From: Thermoleophilia bacterium
GTDB lineage: Bacteria; Actinomycetota; Thermoleophilia; BMS3ABIN01
Reading direction: 5' to 3'
DNA: 64,000 nucleotides
NCBI GenBank assembly: GCA_014874175.1
Contig: JACWAD010000105.1
Span: forward strand, 365-64,364
This document shows, in pieces, positions 1,374-60,492 of this stretch. Within the stretch, counting starts at the first letter, position 1, and every line of letters starts with the position of its first letter. Under the pieces are notes generated by a model. It was not told the origin of the DNA, made no database searches, and was given only the letters and a program-made list of their open reading frames with translations. Made by a program: the position numbers and the translations under genes.

Positions 1374-1429
1374 TTCCCAGTTTCCAGTTCCAAGTTCCCA
1401 GTTTCCAGTTCCCTGTTTCCTGTCTCGCG
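1374..1429. repeat. 7-bp-period tandem repeat array (TTCCCAG TTTCCAG TTCCAAG TTCCCAG TTTCCAG TTCCCTG TTTCCTG), immediately 5' of the cbiA start. A second short array AAACGAG AAACGTT AAACGAG lies at 1441..1461.
   Basis: Direct reading: eight consecutive heptamers, including one 21-mer duplicated. The cbiA mRNA would carry GGAAACU/GGGAACU repeats right up to the AUG. Confidence 0.85.
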
Positions 1430-1486
1430 TGCATATGGTAAAACGAGAAACGTTAAACGAGTATATTTTACATGAGAGGGAGAGGA

Positions 1487-2476
1487 TTATCCGGGGTGCC
1501 GCAGCCTGTCAAGGATAGTTTGCAGGTCCGGCGGCAGCGGTGCGCTGACCATTATGGCGTTTCCGGTGACGGGATGCGTGAACTCAAGGCGGGCAGAATG
1601 AAGAAACTGGTGCCCCACTTCCAGAGGGTCGCGGCGGCGTCCATAGACTCTGTCGCCGGCCACGGGATGCCCGATGGCCGCCAGATGCACGCGAATCTGG
1701 TGGGTGCGGCCTGTCTCCAGCGTCACCTCCAGCAGGGAAAAACTGCCGTCCTGCCTTGTTCCGGTTTTAACGGAGGCGGCTTTTGTCCCGGGAGCGCCGC
1801 TTTGTCTACGGCGGCCGTGTGCTTCCGGCCAGCTTTCAAGGACTTTGAAATGCGTCACCGCCCGCCGTCCGCGGCCCCGCGCCACCGCCATCCGCTTGCG
1901 ATCGTGTATATCACGCCCAAGCGGCGCTTCCACGGTGCCGGAGGGCGATTTGAAGAGACCGTGCACAAGGGCCAGGTATGTGCGGCTGATCTCGTGTGCG
2001 GCCAACATCCGGGCCAGCCGCCGGTGCGTTTGCTCATCCCTGGCGACTATCAGCAGGCCGGATGTATCCTTGTCAAGGCGGTGGACGATTCCAGGCCGGC
2101 CGGGCTGTCCTCCCCCGGTTATCCGGTGAGAGAGCAGGCCGTGAACAAGCGTCCCTTCCCGGTGGCCTCTGGCCGGATGGACAACGACTCCGGCAGGCTT
2201 GTCAACAACGAGTAAAAAATCGTCCTCGCATGGAATGCTCAAATCCATGGCCTCGGGGGCAAGCGCCTGCACCGGCTGCTCGGGCAAGAGGGCGTGTATG
2301 GTCTGACCGGCCCGGACGCGGAAATTTTTGCCCTGAGGCTTGCCGCCCACCTGAACCAGCCCGGCGGCAATCAGTTTTTGCGCGGCAGCGCGTGAGCCAA
2401 TCCGGGGCTCACGGGAAAGCACCTTGTCCAGGCGCTCGTTGCCGGCCCTGTCGCCTACTTTTAACCTTAATCTCAT
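1487..2476 (-). CDS. rluD: 23S rRNA pseudouridine synthase RluD family (S4 domain + PseudoU_synth_2)
   Basis: ORF track 1487..2575. The N-terminal 33 codons overlap a heptad-repeat array, so the likely true start is the internal Met at 2476 (MRLRLKVGDRAGNERLDKVL...), giving 329 aa. Conserved HRLDKDTSGLL motif. Sits in the conserved lspA-rluD pairing. Confidence 0.85.
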   Translation of the reverse strand: MRLRLKVGDRAGNERLDKVLSREPRIGSRAAAQKLIAAGLVQVGGKPQGKNFRVRAGQTIHALLPEQPVQALAPEAMDLSIPCEDDFLLVVDKPAGVVVHPARGHREGTLVHGLLSHRITGGGQPGRPGIVHRLDKDTSGLLIVARDEQTHRRLARMLAAHEISRTYLALVHGLFKSPSGTVEAPLGRDIHDRKRMAVARGRGRRAVTHFKVLESWPEAHGRRRQSGAPGTKAASVKTGTRQDGSFSLLEVTLETGRTHQIRVHLAAIGHPVAGDRVYGRRRDPLEVGHQFLHSARLEFTHPVTGNAIMVSAPLPPDLQTILDRLRHPG

Positions 2477-2512
2477 CGCGCCCGCTTCATCCTCCGCAGC
2501 AGCCCGCGAACC

Positions 2513-2607
2513 TGTTTCCGGTTTCCTGTTTATGGTTTCGGGTTCCAGATATTGGTCGTGGGCTTTGGGTTTCATTCGACATTCCCATGTCCACCATCCA
2601 CCATCCG
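2513..2607. repeat. 7-bp-period repeat array (GTTTCCG GTTTCCT GTTTATG GTTTCGG GTTCCAG ... CCACCAT CCACCAT) between the lspA stop and the rluD start
   Basis: Direct reading of the plus strand. The minus-sense RNA carries GGAAAC/CGGAAAC repeats. Confidence 0.75.
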
Positions 2608-2608
2608 C

Positions 2609-3088
2609 TTACCATTTCCACAACAGCCCTTTGACCAACAATAAGACCCCCGCCACAATGAAAGCATCGGCGAGGTTAAAGGCGGGCCAATGAGGAAGGC
2701 GGATAAAATCAGTCACGCTGCCCGACCATGCGCGATCAGCCAGGTTGCCGATGCTGCCCGCGCCCAGAAGGGCAAAAGCCCAGTTCCAGCGGCTGTCCCT
2801 GCGCAAGGCAAAGGCGGCCAGGGCCAGCAGCGCCACCACTATCGAGCTGGCAACAATTATGGCGGCCGCATGCCCCTCCAGAATGCCGAAAGCAATGCCC
2901 TGGTTGCGCACATATTCCAGGTGCAGGAAAGGCAGGATGCCGACGGACTGCTCGGGAGACATAAGGCTGCGCACAAGAACCTTGGAAACAAGATCAGCCC
3001 CCAGCAGAAGCAACAAGCGCGAAAAAAGCTTGACCGGCACTTTACGCGAATGCTGGATTTTGGATGCCGGACTCTGTATTAAACCCAA
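2609..3088 (-). CDS. lspA: Lipoprotein signal peptidase (signal peptidase II)
   Basis: 159 aa, four TM segments, conserved NxGxAFG-like motif (RNQGIAFGIL) and FNLAD motif. Adjacent to rluD. Confidence 0.9.
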   Translation of the reverse strand: MGLIQSPASKIQHSRKVPVKLFSRLLLLLGADLVSKVLVRSLMSPEQSVGILPFLHLEYVRNQGIAFGILEGHAAAIIVASSIVVALLALAAFALRRDSRWNWAFALLGAGSIGNLADRAWSGSVTDFIRLPHWPAFNLADAFIVAGVLLLVKGLLWKW

Positions 3089-3239
3089 AATGCATGCGGT
3101 TGATGCATATAAGACTAGCCTCCGGAATTGAAGCTTGCTGAATGTCCATTAAAGAACCAAAAACCTGAATAGCGTTGACCCCGGTTTATTGACCTCGATA
3201 CATAATTACGGCCCTATTTATGATTTTACCAAAGCCGCC

Positions 3240-3297
3240 ATCCAGAATCCTGTCCAGTATCCAGTATCCAGCACCTTATCCAGCATCCGGTTTACTG
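3240..3297. repeat. 7-bp-period repeat array (ATCCAGA ATCCTGT CCAGTAT CCAGTAT CCAGCAC CTTATCC AGCATCC GGTTTAC) in the lspA 5' region
   Basis: Direct reading. The minus-sense RNA has GGAU every 7 nt. Confidence 0.8.
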
Positions 3298-3684
3298 TCT
3301 GTTTTCCAGACGGCTCTGGCACCGAACGCATCTGCTTGCATATGGCACCGCTTCCAGCCTTTCCCGGGGAATATTACTGCCGCAGGACACACACCTGCCG
3401 TAGTTGCCGTCTTCGATGGCCCTTAATGCGGCGTCAACCCGCCCAAGCAGCTGCGTCAGATGCACCTGCATGCTTAAGCCGGCTTCCTGATTCTGGGCCA
3501 GCGCCGCAATCTCGGCAACCCGCTCATCACGGTTCGCCTCCTCGGCCATCTCCTTCATGGCCGCGTCGAAATCCTCCTCGAGGCGCTCAATATCGCGCCG
3601 CGTTCTTTCACGCAGTGCCAGCAGTTTTTCAATCTGTTCTTGATTTGGCTTCAAGGAAAAAAGAGCTCCGAGTTCCGAGTCCAA
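3292..3684 (-). CDS. DksA/TraR-family C4-type zinc-finger protein
   Basis: C-terminal CVSCGSNIPRERLEAVPYASRCVRCQ (CxxC-x17-CxxC) after a coiled-coil region. The first 9 codons of the listed ORF are themselves heptad repeats (GAGCTCC GAGTTCC GAGTCCA), so the start is more likely the TTG at about 3657. Confidence 0.75.
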   Translation of the reverse strand: MDSELGALFSLKPNQEQIEKLLALRERTRRDIERLEEDFDAAMKEMAEEANRDERVAEIAALAQNQEAGLSMQVHLTQLLGRVDAALRAIEDGNYGRCVSCGSNIPRERLEAVPYASRCVRCQSRLENRQ

Positions 3685-3696: not shown

Positions 3697-4071
3697 CTAC
3701 TTCCCACTGTCCGCTTTATTCCCTTCCAGGATGGTTTTTATCGTTGCCTGCGCGAGGGCCGGTTTGACCCCGACAAGCAGAATTGTCTTTACGCGTGAGC
3801 GCTCCCCGGAGAGAATCCTGAGACGGTTCTTTCTTATGCCCAGCCCGCGTGCCAGTAATTTAAGCAGGGCCTGGTTGGCCTTGCCCCCGACAGGAGGCGC
3901 CTGGACCCGGACCTGCAGGCATCCGCCCGCTATGCCCTTGATTTCTGATCTCTTTGCCCCGGGCACGACGCGGATTTCAAGCAGCGTCCCTTCTTCAGCC
4001 CCCTTGGCATACAAATGCATAAAGTTTAGAGTTTCGAATTTCGGGTTTAATCCACCGTCTGCATCCGCCAT
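3697..4071 (-). CDS. yggU: DUF167 / YggU-family protein
   Basis: GTLLEIRVVPGAKRSEIKG...LQVRVQAPPVGGKANQALLKLLARGLGIRKNRLRILSGERSRVK is the typical DUF167 signature. A heptad array occupies the first 17 codons, so the likely start is the internal Met at 4020. Confidence 0.8.
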   Translation of the reverse strand: MADADGGLNPKFETLNFMHLYAKGAEEGTLLEIRVVPGAKRSEIKGIAGGCLQVRVQAPPVGGKANQALLKLLARGLGIRKNRLRILSGERSRVKTILLVGVKPALAQATIKTILEGNKADSGK

Positions 4072-4082
4072 CCGCCATCTGC
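4023..4082. repeat. 7-bp-period repeat array (AGTTTAG AGTTTCG AATTTCG GGTTTAA TCCACCG TCTGCAT CCGCCAT CCGCCAT)
   Basis: Direct reading. It shares the CC(A/G)CCAT unit with the array at 2590..2607. Confidence 0.75.
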
Positions 4083-4086: not shown

Positions 4087-4872
4087 TTACCATTTGAATT
4101 CTTCTTCCTCGGTGCTCATCTCAACATCGGCAAAAGGATCATCCTCGTCATCAGGGGAAACGGGGCGGGCCGTTTCGGCTTCCAGGGAAGGGAGGCCGCT
4201 CTCTCCGTCCGCCACCCGTTCAATGTTTTCCTCTTTCGCGGCAGCCACCATCTCTACGCCGCTGTCAAGGATATCCTCCGGAGCGGCGACGTCATCGTCC
4301 CGGGCAGCTTCAGAATCGCCGGCTGGGACGAGGTCGGCGGCAGCGTTAACCTGTGTCTTAAAATCCGCCCCTATTCCAGCTGCCGGCTCAACGGCCGCCG
4401 TCCCTTCCGGCAGATCCCCGCCTTCCAGCTCTCCTTCCTGGTCAAGGATATTCATGTAGGTCTCCAGCACCGACCGCATCTGATAGCGCAGGTCCTCGTT
4501 CTTTTGCTTCAGCGTCTGCACCGAGCGCTGTATTTTTTGCCGCTCGGCGTATGAATCGTTGAGAATGCTGCGCGCTTTCAGCTCCGCGTCACGGAGGATC
4601 AGGTCCGCTTCCTTCTTGGCGTTTTGCTTTATCTCCTCGGCCTGCTGCTGAGCCGATACCAGCGTTTTTTTCAGTGTCTCCTCGATGTTGCGGTATTGCT
4701 CGACTTTCCCTTCCATTGACTCTGCTTTTTCTTTGTAGTCAATATTCTCGTTAAAAATGCGCTCAAACTCATCCGCGATGTCATCGAGGAATTCATCAAC
4801 CTCGACGTCCTTATAGCCGCGCATCGCACGCGAGAATTCCTTGTGCCTGATGTCCAGCGGTGTCAATTTCAT
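4087..4872 (-). CDS. divIVA: Cell-division protein DivIVA, with an acidic C-terminal tail
   Basis: N-terminus MKLTPLDIRHKEFSRAMRGYKDVEVDEFLD is the canonical DivIVA start. Followed by coiled coil. Confidence 0.9.
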   Translation of the reverse strand: MKLTPLDIRHKEFSRAMRGYKDVEVDEFLDDIADEFERIFNENIDYKEKAESMEGKVEQYRNIEETLKKTLVSAQQQAEEIKQNAKKEADLILRDAELKARSILNDSYAERQKIQRSVQTLKQKNEDLRYQMRSVLETYMNILDQEGELEGGDLPEGTAAVEPAAGIGADFKTQVNAAADLVPAGDSEAARDDDVAAPEDILDSGVEMVAAAKEENIERVADGESGLPSLEAETARPVSPDDEDDPFADVEMSTEEEEFKW

Positions 4873-5177: not shown

Positions 5178-5984
5178 TTAACCCAACTCGCCAGCGCGGG
5201 CCCAGGCCGCCTGCACCGCCTCGATGATGGCCGATCGGGCGCCGCGCCTTTCCAGCACCGCCAGGCCGGCGGCGGTAGTGCCCGCCGGCGACGTAACGCG
5301 CCGGCGCAGCTTCTCCGGCCCCGGCCCCCCCTCCGAGATCAGCTTTGCCGTGCCGGCTAGCATTGAGCCTGCCAGCTCGCGGGCGGCTGCGGGGGGAAGG
5401 CCGGCAAGGACGCCGGCGTCGATGAAGGACTCCATTATCAACGCCAGGAAGCCGGGTCCGCTGCCACTGATAGCCGTAGCGGCGGCGAAGAATTTCTCCT
5501 GAAGCGGAATGACGCGGCCCAGCATCTGAAGCAGCCCGGAAACCTCCTCGCTTAACGCCTGACTGGCGCCATGCCCGGCGGCAAAGGCAATGGTGCCGGC
5601 GCCAACTTCCACGGCCATGTTGGGCATCAGCCTGAAAACATTCACCTCGAACGGAAACAGCGCCTCCAGAAAGGCAATGGTCCGGCCCGCGGCAACCGAG
5701 ACAAGCACTTTCCCCCGGCTGAACAGGGGAGCCGCCTCTTTCAAGGCCGCCTCCACGCCGCCGGGCTTCACCGCCAGCAGCACAAGATCCGACTGTTCAA
5801 CCAGCTCCCTGTTCGAGCCGGCAATCGACGCCCCGGTTGCGGCTGCCAGCTTCTGAGCCGCCTCGGGGCGGGCGTCGGCCACAGTTATGCGCCCGGCCAT
5901 AGCTGGATCGGACCTGATCCACCCTTTCACAAATGCAGCGCCTATATTGCCCGAGCCTATCAGCCCGATGCTGCCGATGGTCAT
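5178..5984 (-). CDS. proC: Pyrroline-5-carboxylate reductase
   Basis: Rossmann N-terminus IGLIGSGNIG, P5CR C-terminal dimerisation region (TSPAGTTAAGL). Confidence 0.85.
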   Translation of the reverse strand: MTIGSIGLIGSGNIGAAFVKGWIRSDPAMAGRITVADARPEAAQKLAAATGASIAGSNRELVEQSDLVLLAVKPGGVEAALKEAAPLFSRGKVLVSVAAGRTIAFLEALFPFEVNVFRLMPNMAVEVGAGTIAFAAGHGASQALSEEVSGLLQMLGRVIPLQEKFFAAATAISGSGPGFLALIMESFIDAGVLAGLPPAAARELAGSMLAGTAKLISEGGPGPEKLRRRVTSPAGTTAAGLAVLERRGARSAIIEAVQAAWARAGELG

Positions 5985-6523: not shown

Positions 6524-6690
6524 CTCCTGTGCTGATTGAGGCTTAAAAGCCGATCATCAAGTAATACATCAGGGTTACCGGCTCCCTGCCGGCCGCACTA
6601 CGAACCCCTGCTGGGATAGGTTCTTAATTCTCCACTCCCTTCCGTTTTTGTTCTACCTTGATCTCCCTATCCCTTGTTCCGGCCTCCTCC

Positions 6691-7398
6691 CTACCTGTAA
6701 AGCAGGCTGCCCACCCTGATTATTGTGGCGCCTTCCTCGACTGCGACCGTAAAATCCTGGCTCGTTCCCATGGAAAGGCGCTCAAAGCTGAATTTGCCGT
6801 GCCATTTCTGGGAGAGCTCGGAAGCCAGGCGGCGCAGGGCCGCGAAGGCTGGTCGGACAACCTCGGGGTCGGCCGCCAGGGGCGGCATTGTCATGAGGCC
6901 GGTGAAGTTCACCCTTGGAAATTTTGCAGCCTCCTCAAGGAAGCGGTCAACTTCGGAAGGAATAATACCATACTTGCCCGCTTCCTGGCCAATGTTGACC
7001 TGGAGGAGAACATTTGCCTGGATCCGCGCGCGGCGGTCGATCTCCCCGGCCAGGCTCAATGAGTCCAGCGAATGGATCAGCCTGACCAGCGGCAACACCT
7101 GCCCCACCTTGTTGCCCTGCAGGTGGCCGATGAAATCCCACGTGAACCGGGAGCCGTAAAGGCGGTGCTTGGCGGTCAGCTCCTGGGCCCTGTTCTCACC
7201 GATAAGGGCGATGCCGGCATCGGCCAGAACCGCAAGGCCGTCAGCAGAGACATACTTGGTGGCGGCGAGGATCTCGACGCCGGCCGGGTCGCGCCCGGCG
7301 CGCCCGCAGGCGGCAGCCACCTCTTCCCGGATGCGGGCAAAACTGGCGCGAATGCGGCCCGAGTCCAGTTCAGCGGCGGTTTTAGCCTCATGTTTCAA
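6691..7398 (-). CDS. yggS: YggS-family pyridoxal-phosphate homeostasis protein (alanine-racemase N-terminal fold)
   Basis: 235 aa, conserved ATKYVS / HFIGHLQGNK motifs. Apparent TTG start at 7398. Confidence 0.85.
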   Translation of the reverse strand: MKHEAKTAAELDSGRIRASFARIREEVAAACGRAGRDPAGVEILAATKYVSADGLAVLADAGIALIGENRAQELTAKHRLYGSRFTWDFIGHLQGNKVGQVLPLVRLIHSLDSLSLAGEIDRRARIQANVLLQVNIGQEAGKYGIIPSEVDRFLEEAAKFPRVNFTGLMTMPPLAADPEVVRPAFAALRRLASELSQKWHGKFSFERLSMGTSQDFTVAVEEGATIIRVGSLLYR

Positions 7399-7424
7399 GT
7401 CCCCAGTTTCCAGTTTCCAGTTAA
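7399..7424. repeat. Short heptad array GTCCCCA GTTTCCA GTTTCCA abutting the yggS start
   Basis: Direct reading. The mRNA carries GGAAACUGGAAACUGGGGAC immediately 5' of the start. Confidence 0.7.
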
Positions 7425-7720
7425 AACATCATCTTTAACAAGCCTGGCGGGATTTTTTTCCGGAGCGGTTCGGCCTGCGGGCCACCGAAAACCGGCCTTC
7501 CACCAGGTCAAACGCCCATCAGATGCCGCTAAAACCGCAAATGAAAGCGGAGGGAAATTTCCCGGCCGGCGAAACAGCCTCCACAACCGCTATCCTCGTT
7601 TGCATCATATTAAACCCGGTTCCCAGTTCCCAATTTCAAAAACTATAACGAATATCAGCGAGTTGTCAAAGAAACATCAAGTTTTTTGGTTTTTTTCAAA
7701 GTCCATATCCAGCATTCGGT

Positions 7721-8560
7721 TTACTCTAGCCACGCAATTGCGCCGTGACGGCCGGTGACGCCGCCGTCGCGGCGGTATGAATAAAAGTGTTTGTCACAAG
7801 ACGTGCAGATGTCAAGCAAATGGATGTTGGCGGCGGGAATGCCGGAGGCTTTCAGATCAATTATGGCGGCGGCGGCGAGGTCTGCGCGGTTGCCCGTGAC
7901 TGCTTCCGGGCCGAACCTCGCTTTGAACACTTGCGCTGCCCGGGGGCCGACCTCGTAGCAGCAGGGCCCGATTGCGGGTCCCAAAGCAGCAACAATTCTT
8001 CCCGGATCGGCGCCCAGCTCATTCTTCATTACAGCCACGCCATTTGCAATCACGCCCGCAGCAAGCCCCCTGCGCCCGGCATGCAGCGCTCCCACGGCCG
8101 GCCGCCTACCGCCCGCAGCCAGAACCACGGGCAGGCAATCAGCAAAGTGAAGCAGGATGGGAGCATTGGGAAGCGCTGTTATCAACCCGTCGCAGGGATC
8201 GAAAAGGGACTCCTCGCCGAAAGCCCCGGAGCCTACCTGTTCGTCGCGCTCAAGAAGCATGGGCTTTGGCGTATGCCGCTGGCGGGGAGAAGTGATGGCG
8301 GCAGGATCGACTCCAAGCATCTCCGCCAGGGCAGTCCGGTTCTGCGAGACATGCTCTCGGTCGTCGCCGACGTGAAATCCCAGATTCAGCGACTCGTACG
8401 GGGGCTCGCTGACACCTCCGTTCCTCATCGTAAAAAAAACATTGACTCCCGCCGGAGCCCGGGAAAACTTCCAGCCGAGCGGCAGCCTGAAAACCGGATT
8501 GACCTTCGAGAACGATGCGTGGCTGTTGATGCCGTCAAATAATGACTGATTTCTGTTCAT
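7721..8560 (-). CDS. pgeF: Peptidoglycan editing factor PgeF (YfiH/YlmD, laccase-domain protein)
   Basis: Cys/His triad motifs (CLPVVL, CTSCD), conserved position immediately downstream of ftsZ. Confidence 0.85.
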   Translation of the reverse strand: MNRNQSLFDGINSHASFSKVNPVFRLPLGWKFSRAPAGVNVFFTMRNGGVSEPPYESLNLGFHVGDDREHVSQNRTALAEMLGVDPAAITSPRQRHTPKPMLLERDEQVGSGAFGEESLFDPCDGLITALPNAPILLHFADCLPVVLAAGGRRPAVGALHAGRRGLAAGVIANGVAVMKNELGADPGRIVAALGPAIGPCCYEVGPRAAQVFKARFGPEAVTGNRADLAAAAIIDLKASGIPAANIHLLDICTSCDKHFYSYRRDGGVTGRHGAIAWLE

Positions 8561-8601
8561 GGCGGAAAAGAAAAAACGGCCCTGCCTGCCAAATGATCGT
8601 T

Positions 8602-8646
8602 GGGTTCCGGGTTCCGGGTTCCGGGTTCCGGGTTCCGGGTTCCGGG
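8602..8646. repeat. Perfect tandem repeat (GGGTTCC)x6 between ftsZ and pgeF
   Basis: Direct reading: gggttcc repeated six times then ggg. The minus-sense RNA carries (GGAACCC)6. Confidence 0.95.
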
Positions 8647-8835
8647 AAAAAACTATACCACTATCTTACTAATTGTAAATAATGAACTGCTACGGAAGCG
8701 GAGCCTGCCGGACATCGGCAGGAAATAGGCAAACCCTTGCAAGCCCTGAGCTAATTCCTGAACGAATTGGATGAACAGTTTGGCCAAGAAAAATGTCAGC
8801 CGGCAGCCGTGAAGGCAAAACGAAAACCGCCCCGC

Positions 8836-9951: not shown

Positions 9952-11271
9952 TTAGGTTTTGCTCTGCCGCCCAAACCAACCCTTAACCTTTGCCAGAACC
10001 TCTTCCCATAACCCTAAAGAACGGGTTGAGGCTTCTGCCGGCCGGCTCGGCCCCCGCTTAAAAATACGCTCGCTTCCATATAAAATCAAGCCTACGGCGG
10101 TAGCATAGACGGGATTACTGGGGATGTCAACAACGGCTGCGGCATTGACGGGCAGTCCCGGCCGGCAGGGGAAAGACATCACCTGCTCCGCCTGCCCGCA
10201 GATACCCTCAAGCTGGCTCGACCCGCCGGTGAGAACAATCCCTGCAGCAATGCTTGAGAGATAGCCGCTTTCTTTGGCCTGTTTAAGAACGAGAGAAAAA
10301 ATTTCCTTTACTCGCGACTCGATGACGCGCGCGAGGAATTTCTTTGAGAATGTAACGGTCCTTTTTGGGCCCGTTCCGGACACGGTCAGCGAGTATTTTG
10401 CCATCTCGATGTCCTCGACCAGATGGCTCTGGGCATTGCCGTGCTTTATTTTTATCTCTTCAGCTGCGCCCAGGGGCACCTTGAGCGCCACTGATATATC
10501 CCGGGTGATATGGCTGCCGCCCACCGGCAGCACAGCAGAATGGACAAGCCTGCCGGCCACAAAGATAACGGCGTCCGTCGTCCCGCCGCCTATATCCACC
10601 AGCATCACTCCCGACTGAAGATCTTCCTCTTTCAGGCAGGCCCGGCCTGATGCCAGCGGCTCCAGAACAATGTCCCGCACCTCAAGGCCGGCCGCTTCTA
10701 CCGCTGCGATCAGGTTTTGAATCGAGCTGATGGCACCGAATACGACGTGGCCTTCCATCTCAATGCGCTTTGCCCACATGCCTACAGGCCGCTTGATGCC
10801 GTCCTGGCCATCAAGGATATACTGGCGCGGCAGCGCATGTATCATCCTCAGGTCTGGTGATACATCAACATTCTTCAGTCTTTTCAGAAGCATCTGCCGC
10901 TCCGCTTTTGTCACGCGCCCGTCCGCATTGGGATTATCGAGCGACACGCGCCGGTTCATTGAAACCATGTGCGCCCCGGCAACGCCGGCAAAGACACCAT
11001 TGGCCTGCTCCGCTACCCCGGCGGCGGCCGCTGCTGCCTTGATTGATTCAGATGCGTCTTTGATGTCAACAACCACCCCCTTGTGCATTCCCTGCGCTGG
11101 GGCGTTGCCAATGGCTGTTATCTTTCGAAGCTTCCCCTTTTCGTCAAGCTCGCCAACCAGGCAGGCAATCTTGGTGGTGCCGACGTCCAGGGCGATGACG
11201 GGCGGGTACGGGGACACCGCCCCCCTGCTGCCCGCCTGTTTTTTATTTTTCCGATCAGTCATTCCATCCAT
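9952..11271 (-). CDS. ftsA: Cell-division protein FtsA
   Basis: Actin-fold motifs (ALDVGTTKI, DIGGGTTD), position between ftsQ and ftsZ. Confidence 0.93.
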   Translation of the reverse strand: MDGMTDRKNKKQAGSRGAVSPYPPVIALDVGTTKIACLVGELDEKGKLRKITAIGNAPAQGMHKGVVVDIKDASESIKAAAAAAGVAEQANGVFAGVAGAHMVSMNRRVSLDNPNADGRVTKAERQMLLKRLKNVDVSPDLRMIHALPRQYILDGQDGIKRPVGMWAKRIEMEGHVVFGAISSIQNLIAAVEAAGLEVRDIVLEPLASGRACLKEEDLQSGVMLVDIGGGTTDAVIFVAGRLVHSAVLPVGGSHITRDISVALKVPLGAAEEIKIKHGNAQSHLVEDIEMAKYSLTVSGTGPKRTVTFSKKFLARVIESRVKEIFSLVLKQAKESGYLSSIAAGIVLTGGSSQLEGICGQAEQVMSFPCRPGLPVNAAAVVDIPSNPVYATAVGLILYGSERIFKRGPSRPAEASTRSLGLWEEVLAKVKGWFGRQSKT

Positions 11272-14318: not shown

Positions 14319-14430
14319 AGTTCCAGTCCCCAGTTCCCAGTTTAAAAAATTGAATCGATTACTAACTTTTTGTCAAAACAGGTGCTTCGATATTTGAAAT
14401 TCGGCATTCGGCATTTTCATTGTCCACCAT

Positions 14431-16723: not shown

Positions 16724-18303
16724 TTCGCCTCCGCCTTTATTTGTTTTACCAGCGAGATGAAGTGATCGCCCCGCTGCTCGAAATTTTCATACTGGTCAAA
16801 ACTGGCGCAGGCAGGCGCCAGCAGGACCACATCGCCAGGGACGGCAGTCTCGGCCGCGGCCCGGACAGCATCTTCCAGGCCGTCAACCACCGTCACGGCC
16901 CTGCCAGCCTCCCTGAAATCGGCGGCTATCCGGGCGGCCGCATCCCCCATGGCAATCACTTCTTTTACCTTGCCGCCCCCAGCCGCCTGTGCCAGTTCGT
17001 TAAATGGACATCCCTTCAGGCTGCCCCCCAAGATCAGGTGAATGCCCTTGTCAAAAGCGGTTAGCGCCCCCACCGAGGCGGCTGCGTTGGTGGCCTTGGA
17101 GTCGTTGACATAGGTGACGCCGCTGACCTCGGCCACGCGCTCCAGCCGGTGCGGCACCCCGGAAAAGCTTCTCAGGCCAACTGCTACCTCTGCCGGCGAA
17201 AGCCCGGCAGAAAGGCAGACGGCCGCAGCGGCCAGCGAGTTTTCCAGGTTATGCTCGCCCTTTACCGAAGCCTCCGGCCAGTAAATAATCTTTTCAGGTC
17301 CCTCCGGTGAGTCTTCGCCGCGGGCGCGGTCTTTCCTGCCAGCACCGGCAACGGCGGCGCCGGGAGAAGCCGCCCTGAACCTGGCTTCCAGGCTGCCGGC
17401 GGCAGGCGCGAGCCTGTCCATGTCGGCATAGATCACATTTTCGCGGGCAAAAACCGCCAGCGCGGGTAAGCCGCTGCCGGACCTGCCGGCGGCGGCGCTG
17501 CTGCCAAAACCGAACCAGATGCTGCCCGCCGGCCCTGATACGGCGGCCTCCCGCACGGCGGGATCATTCGCGTTAAAAACCGCGAGATCCCCCTCCTGCT
17601 GACGCTTGAAAATTCTCATCTTGGCGGAATAATACTCCTCCAGCGTGGCATGGCGGTCCAGGTGATCCTCGCTCAGGTTGAGCAGCACTGCTATATGAGC
17701 GCGGAAATCAACAATATCCTGAAGCTGGAAGCTGGAGAGCTCTACGACAAGAATGTCGCGCTTGTCAACGACTCCCGCCAGCGACGAGAGCGCCGTGCCA
17801 ACGTTCCCTGCCACCCGGCAGCGCCAGCCGGCCCGCCTGAAAATGTGGCCGACGAGTTCGCTTGCCGTCGTCTTTCCGTTCGTGCCGGTGATGCCAATGA
17901 CAGGATTCTGCAAAAAGCGGCCGGCAAACTCGACCTCTCCCCACACGGGCAGTCCACTCCGGCGAGCCTGGCCAAGCAGCGGAATCTCCGCCGGCACCCC
18001 GGGGCTCTTTACCAGCAAGCTGCAGCCGTCCAGAAGGCTGACGTCCTCGCTTCCAAGCCTGAGCTCGACCCCGGCCGCCTCGAGCGCCGCCAGCTCCGCC
18101 GGGGAAGCAGGTTCGGCGCTGGCGTCCGAGAGCACGACCTTGACCCCGGGCAGCAGGCGGCGGGACATTAACGCCGCCGCCCTGCCTGAACGGGCGGCGC
18201 CGACAATCAGCAAAAAACCATTAAACCGGACTTTGGATTCTGGATGTTGGACCTCAGGCACCGGAAGCCCCCGTCTTTTTGTTGCTGTCATTCCGGATGA
18301 CAA
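16720..18303 (-). CDS. murD: UDP-N-acetylmuramoylalanine--D-glutamate ligase
   Basis: GITGTNGKTTASEL, Mur ligase middle and C-terminal domains. The N-terminal roughly 24 codons overlap a heptad array, so the true start is likely near 18231. Confidence 0.9.
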   Translation of the reverse strand: MSSGMTATKRRGLPVPEVQHPESKVRFNGFLLIVGAARSGRAAALMSRRLLPGVKVVLSDASAEPASPAELAALEAAGVELRLGSEDVSLLDGCSLLVKSPGVPAEIPLLGQARRSGLPVWGEVEFAGRFLQNPVIGITGTNGKTTASELVGHIFRRAGWRCRVAGNVGTALSSLAGVVDKRDILVVELSSFQLQDIVDFRAHIAVLLNLSEDHLDRHATLEEYYSAKMRIFKRQQEGDLAVFNANDPAVREAAVSGPAGSIWFGFGSSAAAGRSGSGLPALAVFARENVIYADMDRLAPAAGSLEARFRAASPGAAVAGAGRKDRARGEDSPEGPEKIIYWPEASVKGEHNLENSLAAAAVCLSAGLSPAEVAVGLRSFSGVPHRLERVAEVSGVTYVNDSKATNAAASVGALTAFDKGIHLILGGSLKGCPFNELAQAAGGGKVKEVIAMGDAAARIAADFREAGRAVTVVDGLEDAVRAAAETAVPGDVVLLAPACASFDQYENFEQRGDHFISLVKQIKAEAN

Positions 18304-18352
18304 GCTTTTGGTTTATCCAAGATCCAAAATCCATGGTTCAACATCCGTTTTT
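18226..18352. repeat. Paired heptad arrays in inverted orientation (GGACTTT GGATTCT GGATGTT GGACC ... GGTTTAT CCAAGAT CCAAAAT CCATGGT TCAACAT CC) flanking a central palindrome GTCATTCCGGATGAC, in the mraY-murD spacer
   Basis: Direct reading. The left arm carries GGA every 7 bp and the right arm TCC every 7 bp, so the arms are imperfect inverted repeats. Confidence 0.7.
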
Positions 18353-24889: not shown

Positions 24890-25062
24890 ACAAAACAAGC
24901 CTCTGACGGCAAAAAAATAGGGGATTTTACCTAAATTCAAGAGGAATAATCCTGGAAATCAGGCCTGGCGGGGTAATCCAGGAGGAAACAGCCTGGGGAA
25001 GAAACCGCTTTTCGTTTCACCAAATCCGGGAAACGCCAAACGTTAAACGTTAAATTAAAAGA

Positions 25063-25783: not shown

Positions 25784-26392
25784 ATGAAAAAATCGGTTAT
25801 GGGTTATCCGGCATCCAGAATCCGTATCCAGCTTATGGACTATACGCTTCTTCATTTGATTAACCAGATGGCAGGCCATGTCTCCGCGGTCGACAGCTTC
25901 TTTTCGCTGGTGGCCAAGTACGGCCCGGCGCTTTATGCCATTCCTCTGCTTTTCATGTGGTTTCGCGGCGGCGACAGCGCCAAGAAGGCAGCCCTGCTCA
26001 GCTTGGCTACCATGGCCGTAGCCCTGTTGATATCACAGGTAATCGGCCATATTTATTTCCGTCCCCGGCCTTATGACGCCCATCCCGGAGGGGTCAACCT
26101 GATCATTCCCAGATCCAGTGACGCCTCCTTCCCTTCGGATCACGCCACCTTCTCATTTGCCATTGCCGGGGTGATCCTGCTGGAGGACCGCCGGTGGGGC
26201 ATCGCTGCTGTGGCGCTGGGCGCCCTCGTCGCTTTTGCGCGCGTTTTTGTCGGCATCCATTATCCCCTGGACGTCGCCGGCGGAGCCGTGCTGGGGCTGG
26301 CGACAGGGGTGCTGATGTGGCAGCTGCGCAGGGTCTTTGATCCGCTGCTTAGGTTCCTGATCAGCATCGCCAGGCGGTTGAAGCTGGCATAG
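25784..26392 (+). CDS. PAP2-family phosphatase (undecaprenyl-diphosphatase-like)
   Basis: PAP2 motifs (SFPSDHAT, RVFVGIHYPLDV). The first 17 codons overlap a heptad array, so the likely start is the internal Met at 25835. Confidence 0.75.
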   Translation: MKKSVMGYPASRIRIQLMDYTLLHLINQMAGHVSAVDSFFSLVAKYGPALYAIPLLFMWFRGGDSAKKAALLSLATMAVALLISQVIGHIYFRPRPYDAHPGGVNLIIPRSSDASFPSDHATFSFAIAGVILLEDRRWGIAAVALGALVAFARVFVGIHYPLDVAGGAVLGLATGVLMWQLRRVFDPLLRFLISIARRLKLA

Positions 26393-31247: not shown

Positions 31248-31290
31248 CCCAGCATCCAGTATCCAGTATCCAGTATCCAGTATCCAGTAT
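31248..31290. repeat. Tandem repeat (CCAGTAT)x5 preceded by a degenerate copy. A second heptad array (CATCCAG AATTTGG CTTATCC AAAATCC AAAGTCC GATATCC AACGTCC GGTTTTA) lies at 31335..31395.
   Basis: Direct reading. The minus-sense RNA carries (GGAUACU)5 immediately 5' of the mvhD start. Confidence 0.95.
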
Positions 31291-31352
31291 CGAAAAGAAT
31301 ATGGCAACTATATACTATTTGTCAAAAAGACAGCCTGCATCCAGAATTTGGC

Positions 31353-34198: not shown

Positions 34199-34202
34199 GC
34201 CA

Positions 34203-38199: not shown

Positions 38200-38232
38200 G
38201 CAAAAACCCAGTTTCGGGTTTCGGGTTCGGCT

Positions 38233-41788: not shown

Positions 41789-42108
41789 TCTCCTTAAAGT
41801 TCAAGATTGTGAGTTCCAAGTTCAGAGCTGTGAGCCAAATAGTTGTGAGCCAAATGTTTTTTCTTTAAACTTTGAACTTTGAATTAAAAAAACCACGGGC
41901 TTATACGCTCCCGTGGCTGCTCTAGGCTTAAGGCTCAAAATCCGCGCTTTTCCGGTCCGGCAACGGGCCGTTATTTTCTGTTTGCCAGCCGGATTTAATA
42001 ACAGGAATGCCGCAGATTCTCAGCCTCAGGCCTAGAGTTGGAGCTTTCCATGCTCGGCAGCGTTACGCCGGGTTGCGCCAAGAAGGTTTCTGAAAAGAAC
42101 CGCCCGCA

Positions 42109-53987: not shown

Positions 53988-55571
53988 TTAGCCAGGCGGT
54001 TCCGCCGGAAACCATATCTCAGCGCCGCTCCCGTCATAGCAGCTTGCAAAGAGTGCGGTCCGGAAACGGGAGATCCCGGACGGCACGTCATACTTGAGCT
54101 CAAGTTTCACCTGGCCTCCCGGCTCGATCTGTGAAAATTCAGCGGGCAGTGGGCAGGCCACGGACACATCCGCCGGGCTGGTCACGACTTTCTCAATTGA
54201 CATATTGTCGGCAATTCCCGGCCCCTCATTTGTGACCAGATAGTCCACATCCAGCCGGCCGGAAAGATAATCCTGGTAGCTTCCCCAAAAAACAGAGTCA
54301 ATCGAGAGTGAAAGGCGGGGCTCGGGCGGCTCCGTCAGCGTGGCGGCGTAAATGTCCCACTTGCCGCTTCTCTTGTCCTGCCAGACAACCTTATTGCCCT
54401 TGATTACTGGATTGATCTGGTCTCCGGGCCGGTTGCAGACAGGCTGTTCGATATTGGTGGACAGGTCCTTGAGATAAATATCCCAATTGTCTACCCAGTC
54501 GCCGTTCTCATCGAAAAAGCCGTTCCTGTTGTCCTGGTAAACCACCAGGTTGCCGCTTAGTGAAGGACTAACCTGGTCTGCCGGCTCCTGCACCAGGGGC
54601 ACGCCGTAAGTTGCCGGATCTGCCGCATAAATGTGCCACCGTTCCCCCGGCTCATTCAGCTTTTGTTGATAAACGACCTGGCCACTGCTAATTGAGGGGT
54701 GCCTCCTTGAGTATTTGCTGCCGCCACCGCTCGCGGTGCCTCCGCCCAGCTTTGACAGGTAGGTCGTGTCGCCTGTTTCCAGGTTGCACGACACAATCAA
54801 CGGCTCATAGTACTGGCCGGCGTAACCGCGTTCTTTTACCCAAACGGCGGTGGAGCCGTCTATATCGGGATCGTAACGCATGTTGGGGATATCATGACTG
54901 TCCAACATGCGGCTGCGCATGGTGCTGAAATCCAGCAGCCTGATAGTGCTACCGCTGTCGCTGATTACGGCTTTCTGGCCAGAAAGAGCCATCGATGACG
55001 CCCGCGGGGCGGCAATGCACCTGCCCATATCTTGGCCGATCAGGCGCAGGCATCCCTGGGAAGAGGTATCCTGCCAGGCGAAAGCGCTGCCATCGCTGAC
55101 CGGTCCAGCCCAGATTTCGGCTCCCGAAAGCAGCTCCTCGGCCTCTCCGCCATAAATGTCCTTTCTCAGCAGACTGTCTGAAATCCCGCGGTCAAGAAAA
55201 TATACCTCGTCTCCGTCCAGGTCCGGGTAGAGGTGATCGCCGGGACCCGTCGCCACAGGCAACTCCTGGACGTTCCATGGTAACGCGGATGCTTGCGACC
55301 GGGCTGGAAACCCCAGACAGGCCGCAGCCAACAACCCCAGAAATAAAATTACCGATCCCTGCTTGAAGAAAGCCCAGGAGGATAAAGATGCGCCACCCCG
55401 CTTAAATCCCCGCTTTTTTCTCCATTCCCTTCCTGCCGGGATGTTTTTTGACAGCCTGCATAAGCTTGCCAGCCGGATGCGCCCGCCTGTCTCATCGCTT
55501 CTGTTAAAACGCGCTTGCTTTTCCCGCTTCAGCCATTGATTCCACATCGTCTCCCCGCTTTCCGATTCCAC
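53988..55571 (-). CDS. Secreted/membrane-anchored PD40 (TolB-like) beta-propeller repeat protein
   Basis: Signal/TM segment ILFLGLLAAACLGFPARSQA. Recurrent WDIYLKD / WHIYAAD / KWDIYAAT PD40-type repeats. The listed start is probably too far upstream. Confidence 0.55.
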   Translation of the reverse strand: MESESGETMWNQWLKREKQARFNRSDETGGRIRLASLCRLSKNIPAGREWRKKRGFKRGGASLSSWAFFKQGSVILFLGLLAAACLGFPARSQASALPWNVQELPVATGPGDHLYPDLDGDEVYFLDRGISDSLLRKDIYGGEAEELLSGAEIWAGPVSDGSAFAWQDTSSQGCLRLIGQDMGRCIAAPRASSMALSGQKAVISDSGSTIRLLDFSTMRSRMLDSHDIPNMRYDPDIDGSTAVWVKERGYAGQYYEPLIVSCNLETGDTTYLSKLGGGTASGGGSKYSRRHPSISSGQVVYQQKLNEPGERWHIYAADPATYGVPLVQEPADQVSPSLSGNLVVYQDNRNGFFDENGDWVDNWDIYLKDLSTNIEQPVCNRPGDQINPVIKGNKVVWQDKRSGKWDIYAATLTEPPEPRLSLSIDSVFWGSYQDYLSGRLDVDYLVTNEGPGIADNMSIEKVVTSPADVSVACPLPAEFSQIEPGGQVKLELKYDVPSGISRFRTALFASCYDGSGAEIWFPAEPPG

Positions 55572-55827
55572 TTCCGCTTTTCAATCTTCTGATCCAGCAA
55601 TAAAGTTGTCCGCGCCTTTTACATTTTCTGTCCTTCTTCACTTTGGCCATTGTAGTTCCATCAATGCTTCACTTCTGCTGCAACTTATCAAACGAGAAGA
55701 CGTTTGTAATCCAACTTTGGTTGTATTTTGACCCGGGGAAAGATGTATTTTTTGGAAAGAAGACAGTGCCGGCCCGGGAAATTTTCAGCCCCGGCCGCGG
55801 ACCGGATGGGAATGATCGATCCCGATT

Positions 55828-59182: not shown

Positions 59183-59324
59183 GCACCATGCGCAAAAAAA
59201 ACTTTCAAATAATTTTATAAGTTAAAGCGGCGCCGGGTAAACCTATTAAACCGGCCACCGGATTCACGGCTAATCAAGAAAAGCGATGCGGATGCCAAAG
59301 GCTCCCGAGGGAGCCTTTGGCCTG

Positions 59325-59760
59325 GCAGGCCCGTAAGCCGGATTCTGTTCTATGCGGCCATCTATCTGGGAAGCGCGTTGCCGCGCCACTCAAGCGGTCT
59401 ACCCGAGGGCCGGGCGAGCAACCCGAATCCACCCTCCTATTTGACCTTGCACCGGGTGGGGTTTACCTGGCAGACGTGTCACCACGCCTCCGGTGCGCTC
59501 TTACCGCACCATTTCACCCTTGCCAGCAGACGCTGCAAGCGGGTCCGGAACTGAAATCATTCCGGGCCCTTGCTTCACGCCAGGCGGGCGGTTTGCTTTC
59601 TGTGGCACTTGCCTGCGGGTTTCCCCGACTGGGCGTTACCCAGCACCCTGCTCTTTGGTGTCCGGACTTTCCTCCCCGCCGTTTTATTCCCCAGGGACAT
59701 GATGGATGCGGAGCATCCTCGTGTCCCTGGTCAAAGGCATTTCCCGGCGGTATTCTGACT
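59325..59760 (-). ncRNA. rnpB: RNase P RNA, bacterial type A
   Basis: Minus strand contains GGGGAGGAAAGUCCGGACACCAAAGAGCAGGGUGCUGGGUAACGCCCAGU, AGUGCCACAGAAAGCAAACCGCC, GGUAAGGGUGAAAUGGUGCGGUAAGAGCGCACC, GGUAAACCCCACCCGGUGCAAGGUCAAAUAGG, GGGUAGACCGCUUGAG and ACAGAAUCCGGCUUA. These match the universally conserved P4/P10-12/P15-18 regions of type A RNase P RNA. The exact 5' and 3' ends are uncertain by a few tens of nt. Confidence 0.85.
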
Positions 59761-60049
59761 CCGCAAAAAAGGGGAGCCGAAAAAAGGCGGGGCGGCCGCT
59801 CGGCCTGCAATCTGATTTTATCAACAACCCGGCGCAAATGCCTGAAGATTGCGAAGTGTCCCTCACTGTTCAGTCGTAAAAAATATGACATCTCCCATCA
59901 GCTCAAATGAATTTTATTTCACTACCAATTGGAACCCTGCAGGAACTTTCAAGCGTCCAAGTCAATGACTTGAAGAAAACAGCCAAAACAGCCGATAAAT
60001 AAACAAAAGCAATTGTTTATCAAAAAAGTCTTGAAGGGAGCTGGGAAGA

Positions 60050-60259
60050 ATGGTTATGAACATCAAGTACACCAGGGTTTTGCCTGTTGATGAAAATGCT
60101 GTCTGTGGTGTAAAGCTGACCGGCTGCCAGCTTGAAGCAGCCGAGCACGTCTGCTTCGAGGATGGCAGCGGCGTCTATGTTTGCGGCAATTGCCTGCGCG
60201 GGCGCATCAATGAAGGCGCCTGGATCACCGACAGCGCCGAGGAGCTGACACTTATATAA
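60050..60259 (+). CDS. Small hypothetical Cys-containing protein (69 aa)
   Basis: Good RBS (GAAGGGAG) 8 nt upstream of the ATG. Five Cys (C-x6-C ... C-x9-C-x2-C). Followed by a strong terminator. Confidence 0.55.
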   Translation: MVMNIKYTRVLPVDENAVCGVKLTGCQLEAAEHVCFEDGSGVYVCGNCLRGRINEGAWITDSAEELTLI

Positions 60260-60291
60260 CTGCTGCTGTTTTCCGGTCTTTGGTTGTTTTA

Positions 60292-60325
60292 AGGGGCCTG
60301 GCGCCGCACGGCGCCAGGCCCCTTT
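60292..60325 (+). terminator. Rho-independent terminator after the small ORF
   Basis: GGGGCCUGGCGCC-GCAC-GGCGCCAGGCCCC (13-bp perfect stem) followed by UUUG. Confidence 0.7.
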
Positions 60326-60492
60326 GCGCCTCTTACATTCATCAGAAGCTGCCGGGAATCCCCCATCCGTAACATGCCGGCCTTCCCGGCCCGACCGCGC
60401 TCCGGCGGCTCTGCTATAATTCTTTCAGCCGGCGGCTCATGGTTTTTGGGGTTCCCAACATCCAAAATCCGATGTCCAGAGTCCGGCTGTTC

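Follow-up and report, generated by a model that had tools for sequence, protein, structure and literature searches.

Tandem repeats with a unit of 7 nucleotides (nt) have been described from the intergenic DNA of several bacterial groups. As recounted in PMC4679880, the 2007 survey by Mrazek found heptanucleotides to be the most abundant class of long simple sequence repeats (SSRs) in most genomes, and its top ten genomes for 5- to 11-nt repeats include four Burkholderia, three Actinobacteria, two Cyanobacteria, and Xanthomonas. Polymerase slippage has been proposed as the cause of long SSRs (Mrazek 2007, as related in PMC4679880 and PMC4692102). The GGGAATC repeats of Xanthomonas share spacers among related species while their length and sequence vary extensively (PMC4692102). 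Intergenic TAACTGA heptamers occur in Beggiatoaceae and Bacteroidetes, with S1, Csp, and CsrA proposed as candidate binders (PMC4679880), and families of four or five tandem heptamers occur in Geobacter metallireducens, where they carry an annotation as putative regulatory elements (PMC2700814). In Haemophilus influenzae, the transcribed 5' untranslated region (UTR) of hmw1A contains an (ATCTTTC)n repeat whose hairpin is cut by RNase III, and expression is inverse to repeat length (PMC12721329). The accumulation of 7-nt repeats has been an open question since the short tandemly repeated repetitive (STRR) family of heterocystous cyanobacteria was described and again since the 2007 survey. Here, we analyze heptamer arrays in a 64,000-nt stretch of a Thermoleophilia bacterium genome (contig JACWAD010000105.1, positions 365 to 64,364; the whole stretch is called the window below). 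Other sequences are cited by handles such as L010.

The arrays are an unusually well organized example of a known, unexplained kind of bacterial repeat. An earlier note on the same DNA took such a landscape to be undescribed in a noncyanobacterial genome. This was wrong, given that intergenic heptamers have been published for Xanthomonas, Burkholderia, Actinobacteria, Beggiatoaceae, and Geobacter, and the window is not the first case outside cyanobacteria. No relevant publication on heptamers of Thermoleophilia or Rubrobacter came up in a literature search. As far as we could find, what appears to be undescribed is the constant succession of the unit classes with respect to stop codon, promoter, and start codon, together with a conserved promoter cassette and a constraint on GGA-N4 units.

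To begin with detection, Tandem Repeats Finder (TRF) reported 18 period-7 rows in the window. These included GGGTTCC at 8602-8646 (6.4 copies, perfect), CCAGTAT at 31249-31291 (6.1 copies), and rows at 1372-1417, 2514-2544, 2590-2606, 3253-3271, 4062-4079, 7392-7422, 14319-14342, 14399-14415, 18315-18333, 25038-25054, 31355-31381, 38211-38227, and 41863-41883. We also scored self-identity at each lag from 2 to 15, with composition-preserving shuffles as the control. Lag 7 gave 16 to 17 segments, versus about 0.8 in the shuffles. Lags 4, 5, 8, 10, 11, and 13 gave 0 to 1 segment each, lags 14 and 21 were harmonics of 7, and lags 3, 6, 9, and 12 carried the expected codon signal. Period-7 arrays were found at, or a few bases from, the loci where the earlier note had seen tandem heptamers with drifting units, and these are real. 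Among the lags tested, lag 7 was numerically the top one in 19 of its 21 loci and was exceeded by another lag in two: 7625-7645, whose coordinates were shifted from the array at 7615-7635, and 38204-38236, where lag 6 scored higher. Three further loci were weak (7700-7730, 55545-55590, and 18226-18352, the last being periodic in its two arms only). The strict 7-nt phasing ascribed to the arrays holds within subarrays; where the unit changes, the lattice carries on only approximately, and lag-7 identity over 2513-2607 is 0.56.

Our curated, Pfam-supported gene map left 9.5% of the window noncoding, and this fraction held 16 of the 17 arrays (416 of 433 nt), which bears out the proposed intergenic location. 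The sole coding array (17721-17736, inside murD) spans 16 nt and is at chance level. Clear arrays occupied 12 of the 29 spacers of at least 30 nt, or about 17 when weak ones are counted, so placing them in "most intergenic spacers" was an overstatement; the 42- to 64-kb part of the window is nearly array free. Nearly all window genes lie on the minus strand, and the arrays are therefore read on that strand. The suspicion that arrays had artificially extended the N termini of open reading frames (ORFs) was correct: for rluD, yggU, and pgeF, homology to orthologues begins past the arrays. An Rfam scan at gathering and permissive thresholds gave no match on the arrays, and only RNase P RNA and tRNA scored above threshold.

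An origin of the arrays in assembly or read collapse is refuted for practical purposes, and we give it next to no weight. Logan assemblies of three separate runs (SRR12217121, -22, and -23) matched the window at 99.96 to 100% over up to 8.2 kb and reproduced about 12 arrays without an indel; three independent assemblies that are identical across these arrays show that they are not an artifact. The arrays are, moreover, shorter than the reads, and the same grammar (below) appears in metagenome-assembled genomes (MAGs) and contigs of several projects and species. All that we found on the other side was Logan contig L144, which ends (positions 1-30) within the 45-nt perfect GGAACCC array, as expected for k = 31. 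Perfect heptad arrays longer than k thus break k-mer assemblies and may hide longer arrays in short-read data. In practice, the arrays both mislead gene callers through extended N termini and break such assemblies.

The arrays follow a positional grammar, which we derived by comparing orthologous spacers of five genomes on the gene strand. An upstream stop codon is followed within 0 to 12 nt by class I units of the form GGA-N4 (GGATGCT, GGATGGT, GGATACT, GGATTCT, and GGACTCT). A conserved junction, GGAT(T)AAAC, leads into class II units (AAACCCG, AAACCCA, and AAAACCA). Then there is often a sigma-70-like near-consensus promoter and CTTTTC, after which class III units (GGAACTC, GGAACCC, GAAACGC, and CTGGRAA) run from about the predicted +1 to the start codon. 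There is also a fourth set, made up of AACGTTT, GTTCAAR, and the complements of both. In 133 kb of clade DNA, three or more core motifs followed one another at a spacing of exactly 7 nt in 36 sense and 3 antisense runs; no such run occurred in the 126 kb taken from array-less relatives. The junction GGAT(T)AAAN was found 12 times in sense and twice in antisense orientation in the clade, compared with 1 and 2 times in the relatives. In 12 of 22 cases, a class I run started no more than 22 nt from the point where a long ORF ends. An automated test found class I next to class II in only 2 of 22 cases, its motif definitions being too strict, and the junction-motif count was used instead. The same few unit families recur at different loci inside each genome, with genome-specific unit preferences.

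The promoter part of the module is conserved in its own right. Thirteen promoter-like cassettes, each with an array downstream, are alike well beyond the two hexamers; their consensus is TTGAYA-AATAGAAAATAATCGNCA-TAAT-CTTTTC-GGAAC, with a conserved spacer. The cassette was not found in array-less relatives or in array-bearing L017 and L018. Among the four top-scoring minus-strand promoter matches in the 1- to 40-kb part of the window, three (7669-7642, 8679-8652, and 31325-31298) have an array within a few nucleotides downstream. With cassettes and arrays adjoining in this way, the heptads look like expandable arms of a dispersed, sense-oriented intergenic cassette. The elements of the window are as follows.

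1-21, minus strand: class I array GGATGAT GGATGCT GGATTTC, 2 nt past the stop codon of the cobQ-like gene; cut by the window edge and continued in L143
1372-1426, minus strand: class III array, about 8 units of CTGGGAA/CTGGAAA, ending 6 nt before the cobQ-like ATG; the sole Shine-Dalgarno (SD)-like motif there
1441-1461, minus strand: three CTCGTTT/AACGTTT units after the rluD stop codon
2511-2606, minus strand: composite lattice occupying the whole lspA-rluD spacer; GGATGGT from 2 nt past the lspA stop codon, then GAAACCC-type units, then three GGAAACN units (2511-2531)
3052-3093, plus strand: GCTGGAT TTTGGAT GCCGGAC ... TAAACCC at the lspA 5' end; the only oppositely oriented module
3240-3297, minus strand: class I array of CTGGATA and variants, 3 nt past the stop codon of the dksA-like gene
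3663-3682, minus strand: weak three-unit array GGACTC GGAACTC GGAGCTC ahead of the dksA-like start
4020-4082, minus strand: fully occupied divIVA-yggU spacer; three GGATGGC units (4062-4082), junction GGATTAAACCC, class II-like CGAAAYT (4020-4043)
7403-7422, minus strand: CTGGAAA CTGGAAA CTGGGGA immediately ahead of the yggS start
7615-7635, minus strand: three GGGAACT units, 6 nt downstream of the -10 hexamer
7642-7669, minus strand: promoter-like TTGACA-16-TATAGT, 11 of 12 matches
8571-8590, minus strand: hairpin and T-run between array and pgeF ATG, leader- or attenuator-like, with equivalents in L010 and L002
8602-8646, minus strand: perfect (GGAACCC)6.4, from roughly the +1 predicted for the promoter
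8652-8679, minus strand: promoter-like TTTACA-16-TATAGT with extended TG
14319-14340, minus strand: CTGGGAA CTGGGGA CTGGAAC, ending at the murC TTG start; the entire predicted 5' UTR
14349-14376, minus strand: promoter-like cassette TTGACA-17-TCAATT
14385-14430, minus strand: array from the murG stop codon, ATGGTGG ACAATGA AAATGCC GAATGCC ...
18228-18251, minus strand: antisense-type arm TCCAACA TCCAGAA TCCAAAG TCC, pairing with 18315-18332
18315-18332, minus strand: class I arm GGATTTT GGATCTT GGAT after the mraY stop codon; hairpin partner of 18228-18251
25031-25054, minus strand: (AACGTTT)3.4 in the mraZ-TPR spacer
25794-25832, minus strand: class I and then AACCC units in the divergent TPR/PAP2 spacer; sense to TPR and adjoining the PAP2 start
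31249-31291, minus strand: (CTGGATA)6, starting near the promoter +1 and stopping 9 nt short of the flxD ATG
31298-31325, minus strand: promoter cassette TTGACA-AATAGTATATAGTTGCCA-TATT
31337-31386, minus strand: class I array after the hdrA stop codon, upstream of the promoter
38207-38228, minus strand: GAACCC GAAACCC GAAACTGGG, occupying the 33-nt spacer ahead of the mqnC-like ATG
41792-41883, minus strand: rpsO-pnp leader with (TTCAAAG)3 past the rpsO terminator; partly complementary TGAACTT/CTTGAAC adjoin the pnp SD
60441-60484, minus strand: GGACTCT GGACATC GGATTTT GGATGTT GGGAACC CCAAAAACC right before an unannotated ORF; adjoins an opposite-strand tRNA-Leu

About 185 nt (7430-7614, minus strand) separate the promoter-plus-array element at 7615-7669 from the yggS array. 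They contain a 29-codon ORF (MMQTRIAVVEAV...) and a subthreshold Rfam match to leuA-Halobacteria (7552-7604, E = 0.14). At this position, relatives carry unrelated genes, namely, one for a CxxCxxCC protein in L010 and one for a pro-kumamolisin in L017.

Next, we applied the same array detector to syntenic dcw-divIVA regions of relatives at graded distances (identity is that of FtsZ to the FtsZ of the window).

L001/L010 (one species): 96% identity, 13 to 15 arrays per 21 kb
L002: 96% identity, 17 arrays per 21 kb
L017: 91% identity, 7 arrays per 16 kb
L018: 90% identity, 2 arrays per 11 kb
L011: 89% identity, 0 arrays
L020/L021: 88% identity, 0 arrays
L022: 88% identity, 0 arrays
L012/L013 (BMS3Abin01): 86% identity, 0 arrays
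L014-L016: 77% identity, 0 arrays
L003-L008 (unrelated phyla, fetched through proC homology): 2 arrays in L007 (a cyanobacterium), 0 in the others

Among the relatives compared, the trait is confined to a narrow, recent clade with FtsZ at least 90% identical. A search of other members of the lineage, as proposed in the earlier note, thus found arrays in these relatives and none in those at 77 to 89%. Relatives without arrays have short or overlapping junctions between the corresponding genes, which indicates that the arrays are insertions into formerly tight operons. Arrays are present at 90% and above and absent at 86 to 89% with the same gene order, and with this on/off contrast between sister lineages, the determinant can be sought by comparing the gene content of existing MAGs. 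Besides the source MAG of the window, JAJYLW01, JAJYIM01, and GCA_014874265 are heptad positive, and the sister MAGs GCA_054642175, GCA_021785935, and GCA_002897715 are heptad negative.

Within the clade, the arrays turn over quickly. Perfect subarrays (6.4 copies of GGAACCC and 6 of CTGGATA in the window, 11 of AAACCCG in L002, and 6 of GAAACGC in L010) point to recent slippage. The array in the ftsZ-pgeF leader has 6 copies in the window, 4 in L010, and 1 in L002, and the divIVA-yggU, lspA-rluD, and rluD-cobQ spacers contain different units in different species. Between L017 and L018 (93 to 94% DNA identity), the ftsQ-ftsA array differs in length by about 15 nt. L001 and L010 are 99.99% identical, belong to the same population, and are uninformative on polymorphism. 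Length polymorphism, for which the earlier note had proposed a test, was thus seen between species and between 93%-identical genomes and not, at the consensus level, among the three run assemblies. Two local rearrangements were also observed. In L018, (GTTCAAR)5 at 5294-5328 forms the final codons and the stop codon of murG and is missing from L017 (about 100-170), which is 93% identical; arrays can thus rewrite the 3' ends of genes. In L002 (11872-11900), 12 to 13 nt around the divIVA C terminus and stop codon (aaatggtgatta) are tandemly duplicated ahead of the class I array.

Sequence is constrained in spite of this turnover. Across 18 class I arrays, mismatches to the array consensus in the G, G, and A columns numbered 8, 1, and 3 of about 89, compared with 17 to 27 of about 80 in each of the other four columns (chi-square P = 6e-9). 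The heterogeneity among columns was weaker in class III (P = 0.03) and absent in class II (P = 0.23). The constancy of the GGA columns means that slippage alone is insufficient as an explanation; a conserved triplet with a free 4-nt spacer would be the trace expected from selection on a periodic GGA.

Predicted RNA structure does not account for most arrays. Six typical spacers folded no better than shuffled sequence (z scores of -0.8 to +1.1), and we dropped a general structural-RNA reading for this reason. The mraY-murD spacer, with a sense class I arm and an antisense arm, is predicted to form a long RNA hairpin (z = -3.5), and this inverted arrangement recurs in L010 (z = -1.6). The rpsO-pnp leader (41789-41916, minus strand), which includes the intrinsic rpsO terminator, recalls the RNase III-controlled pnp leader of Escherichia coli; its predicted fold was no better than shuffles (z = +0.8). 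Arrays that adjoin a start codon end in TGGG(G)A 9 to 14 nt upstream, with no canonical SD core present, as seen for the cobQ-like gene, yggS, murC, flxD, the mqnC-like gene, and hyp134 (an unnamed ORF). The pgeF leader consists of a promoter-like site, an array, and a hairpin with a T-run in all three species. Two other candidate explanations were rejected. Micro-ORFs or reinitiation peptides were considered (class I often starts with ATG after the stop codon, e.g., MVDGG and MLDKV), but frames and stop codons are inconsistent between loci. Target site duplication footprints of transposons as the source of the 7-nt units lacked both terminal inverted repeats and supporting evidence.

We tentatively read the arrays as slippage-driven, cis-acting leader or intercistronic repeats within a promoter-bearing cassette, with copy number as an evolvable setting. 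The reading takes up what is directly observed: periodicity, noncoding location, orientation, grammar, clade restriction, turnover between species, GGA conservation, and the lack of RNA structure in most arrays. Replication slippage would expand and contract heptamers within the clade-specific, sense-oriented intergenic cassette, and the arrays would act in cis on the expression of flanking genes. In the transcript, they would form an unstructured, GGA-periodic leader or intercistronic RNA that could provide weak ribosome-binding or standby sites, being the sole SD-like purine motif ahead of several starts. Two inverted arrays would form a long hairpin, and the number of repeats would serve as an evolvable tuning knob. 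A precedent is the transcribed hmw1A repeat of H. influenzae, which sets the level of expression (PMC12721329).

Several points weigh against this proposal. Activity of the promoters, transcription of the arrays, and an effect of the arrays on translation or on the fate of the mRNA are all inferred. In the nearest relatives, the essential dcw and divIVA operons function with tight or overlapping junctions and no array at all, so the arrays are dispensable and could be tolerated junk. Nearly all genes of the window and of the sampled loci lie on one strand, and sense orientation is therefore confounded with replication direction; a primase-site or lagging-strand-template role was considered on these grounds. 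Our choice of gene starts next to arrays took the arrays partly into account. In the divergent spacers (25794-25832 and 60441-60484), the class I and II arrays are located upstream of the putative promoter and may go untranscribed. Copy number did not differ among the three run assemblies at the consensus level, and rapid switching of the phase variation type was accordingly not seen at that level. Finally, in metagenome contig L085 (described below), each intercistronic spacer has its own distinct unit, which points to mutation of a general kind and away from a function tied to particular sequences.

The main rival is that the arrays are a neutral by-product of heptad-biased mutation, which we consider somewhat unlikely though a serious contender. 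A lineage-specific slippage or repair defect would seed functionless 7-nt microsatellites wherever a frameshift is tolerated. Heptamers are a favored long-SSR unit in many bacteria, and polymerase slippage has been proposed, so far as PMC4679880 and PMC4692102 relate the survey; the perfect subarrays and quick turnover, the array-less sister lineages with the same operons, the heptad-dense contigs with arbitrary units in another phylum (L085), and at least 120 metagenome contigs with (GGAACYC)3, many bearing further arrays, all fit neutrality. It is less at ease with GGA columns that vary about tenfold less than the other four, the 36:3 sense bias, the fixed order of class I, class II, promoter, and class III with its conserved junction, and the recurrence of the same few unit families among loci of a genome. 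Common descent of one inserted cassette, together with purifying selection against harmful units, would be its account of the grammar. An unlikely alternative that gives the GGA columns a direct role is that the arrays are landing platforms for an oligomeric protein that binds single-stranded RNA and reads GGA or GRA every 7 nt, in a clade-wide posttranscriptional or attenuation regulon. A conserved triplet with a variable 4-nt spacer is the signature of such sites, and the unstructured, sense-oriented arrays, the pgeF leader with its promoter, array, and hairpin with T-run in three species, and the genome-specific unit preferences expected under coevolution with a binder agree with it. Contacts of HutP lie 7 nt apart (U498, U505, and U512; three XAG per protein face; PMC2425495). 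The class II (AAACCCR), AACGTTT, and GTTCAAR arrays, however, lack GGA, copy number at one site ranges from 1 to 6 between species, and dozens of sites per 64 kb demand a very abundant factor. No HutP-, TRAP-, or CsrA-like protein was present among the Pfam-scanned genes of the window. To our knowledge, Actinomycetota generally lack Hfq and CsrA. If true, a GGA-reading protein would govern a genome-wide regulon, which would be notable in an actinobacterial lineage.

Two further proposals place the role of the arrays at the DNA level. One, which we regard as improbable, combines promoter architecture with insulation by termination: the C-rich, G-poor, unstructured (AAACCCR)n would be a Rho loading site for the transcript from upstream or a UP-like A-tract element for the next promoter, and heptad copy number would set spacing and helical phase. 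Class II arrays do lie between the stop codon and the -35 hexamer, A-rich tracts occur at about -40 to -60, and the class I/II arrays of divergent spacers are upstream of promoters and perhaps untranscribed. Yet many arrays have no downstream promoter (e.g., divIVA-yggU and mqnC), class I is G rich, and a 7-bp period is off the helical repeat. The other, template-strand G-quadruplexes regulating transcription or replication, has been proposed for the GGGNATC repeats of Xanthomonas and Nostoc (PMC4692102), and (GGGTTCC)6 at 8602-8646 and the (YGGGTTT)n opposite class II fit the G3-N4 pattern. Only the GGAACCC and AAACCCR units have a G3 or C3 tract, however; GGATGNT, CTGGATA, CTGGAAA, AACGTTT, GTTCAAR, and AAAACCA have none. 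Quadruplexes are thus limited to a minority of arrays, and as a general explanation they are very unlikely.

Heptad arrays extend beyond the clade. A metagenome scan for (GGAACYC)3 found at least 120 contigs, with G+C contents of 0.41 to 0.73 among the matches listed. Many of the listed contigs carry further period-7 arrays (14 in 11.6 kb on L085, 11 in 6.9 kb on L065, and 10 in 10 kb on L110). Their arrays are mostly inverted pairs, (unit)n ... (reverse-complement unit)n, flanking 20 to 450 nt, as at the following positions.

L085: inverted pairs at 2207-2289, 3432-3556, 4674-4755, and 7605-8031
L092: inverted pair at 1360-1480
L052: inverted pair at 10243-10348
L099: inverted pair at 10157-10250
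L110: inverted pair at 7055-7143

L085 has a lipid A acyltransferase gene, and the closest named relatives of its RecQ are Thermodesulfobacteriota/Desulfobaccales; by this affiliation, a second phylum shows the trait. GTTCAAR and GGAACYC units are common to L085, L017, L018, and the window. A tblastn search of all window ORFs against the listed contigs (at least 120) found no close relatives. It is conceivable, if doubtful, that heptad proliferation is a switchable, lineage-level trait with a discrete determinant (an oligomeric GGA-reading protein that binds RNA or single-stranded DNA, or else an activity in slippage or repair that is specific to heptads), which cohabiting, sulfate-reducer-like Thermoleophilia and Desulfobaccales could have acquired or passed between them.

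The host belongs to the Thermoleophilia, order BMS3ABIN01. Its FtsZ relatives at 85 to 96% identity are named "Thermoleophilia bacterium" or "bacterium BMS3Abin01," and an FtsZ 100% identical to that of the window is present on an NCBI/Logan contig. The lineage has been placed in the Actinomycetota, class Thermoleophilia, as an uncultured order and family BMS3ABIN01 of predicted sulfate reducers (PMC13503563, 2026). The dcw-divIVA gene order of the window (mraZ-rsmH-ftsL-PBP-mur genes-ftsW-murG-murC-murB-ftsQ-ftsA-ftsZ, continuing with pgeF-yggS-sepF-proC-yggT-divIVA-yggU-dksA-lspA-rluD) is of the Gram-positive/actinobacterial type. Together with the FtsZ relatives, it confirms that the host is not a cyanobacterium, as had been supposed from gene content. 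The window also contains flxABCD-hdrABC, futalosine pathway genes, rpsO-pnp, and nusA-infB-rbfA-truB. The flxABCD-hdrABC cluster lies at 27924-34766, and DsrC adjoins the syntenic region in L012; both are consistent with the sulfate/sulfite respiration predicted for BMS3ABIN01 Thermoleophilia. An exact-protein lookup with the PNPase of the window gave no matching record.

Some noncoding features of the window are separate from the arrays. RNase P RNA (class A, 260 bits) is encoded at 59322-59729 on the minus strand, and the plus-strand ORF 59317-59910 that overlaps it is an artifact. A tRNA-Leu(GAG) lies at 60493-60580 on the plus strand. The yggS-sepF spacer (6524-6690, minus strand) has a nonrepeat block (aagggatag..caaggtagaacaaaaac..agtggag .. 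cactggag GTG) that is kept upstream of sepF in all relatives, including the array-less L011, L012, and L020. It has no Rfam match and, judged by its conservation, may be a conserved leader or small RNA.

Compared with known systems, the arrays resemble STRR sequences, named as the closest analogue by the earlier note, in form: both have tandem 7-nt units and several unit families per genome and are confined to noncoding DNA. Dimers of STRR units were not found in the searched sequence in any rotation on either strand, nor were dimers of TAACTGA, GGGAATC, GGGGATT, or GGACCGG. The arrays are thus not members of the STRR family; CCCCA[AG]T (STRR1), TT[GT]GTCA (STRR2), and CAACAGT (STRR3) are missing, the host is a member of the Thermoleophilia rather than a heterocystous cyanobacterium, and the arrays are short mosaics that keep a set order with respect to stop codon, promoter, and start codon. 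They share with the long SSRs of the 2007 survey an excess of 7-nt units above chance (17 arrays versus 0.8 in shuffles), an intergenic bias (16 of 17 arrays noncoding) ascribed to 7 not being a multiple of 3, and length variation between close relatives, here between species and between 93%-identical genomes. As in the Xanthomonas GGGAATC and Nostoc GGGGAYT repeats, the same spacers are occupied in related species in variable form, with occasional inverted pairs. Those repeats have one G-rich unit with a proposed quadruplex, whereas the present arrays have at least four classes of unit, of which the majority cannot form a quadruplex, and follow a positional grammar.

The TAACTGA repeats of marine Beggiatoaceae, some Cyanobacteria, and Bacteroidetes (PMC4679880) are similarly patchy across phyla and lie just upstream of starts without a canonical SD, which is true of six genes here. 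They consist of a single unit that is missing from our sequences, and neither a promoter cassette nor a post-stop array is described for them there. The (ATCTTTC)n repeats of hmw1A and hmw2A (PMC12721329) are heptanucleotide SSRs between promoter and start codon, and promoter-like sites lie directly upstream of arrays here. The hairpin of the hmw repeats with a complementary region, a target of RNase III, is comparable to the inverted mraY-murD arrays and the pnp leader. Each hmw repeat belongs to one contingency locus, with switching inside populations; here, the arrays occupy dozens of housekeeping loci, are mostly unstructured, and did not vary in copy number within a population at the consensus level of the three run assemblies. 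With HutP and TRAP sites, the class I arrays share a conserved purine triplet and a variable spacer and, for HutP, the 7-nt contact spacing (PMC2425495). In those systems, a known protein binds 3+3 or 11 triplets, and the sites belong to one operon or a few, while here the arrays are genome-wide and any binder is hypothetical. TRAP itself reads GAG/UAG triplets. MIRU and REP/BIME are intercistronic repeats; MIRU units measure about 46 to 101 bp, and REP-type elements are palindromic. MIRU elements are also actinobacterial, located between operon genes, gene oriented, and copy variable between strains, with a unit size other than 7 nt. Against this background, the positional grammar and the GGA-N4 clue supply concrete hypotheses that the older descriptions of heptamer repeats lacked.

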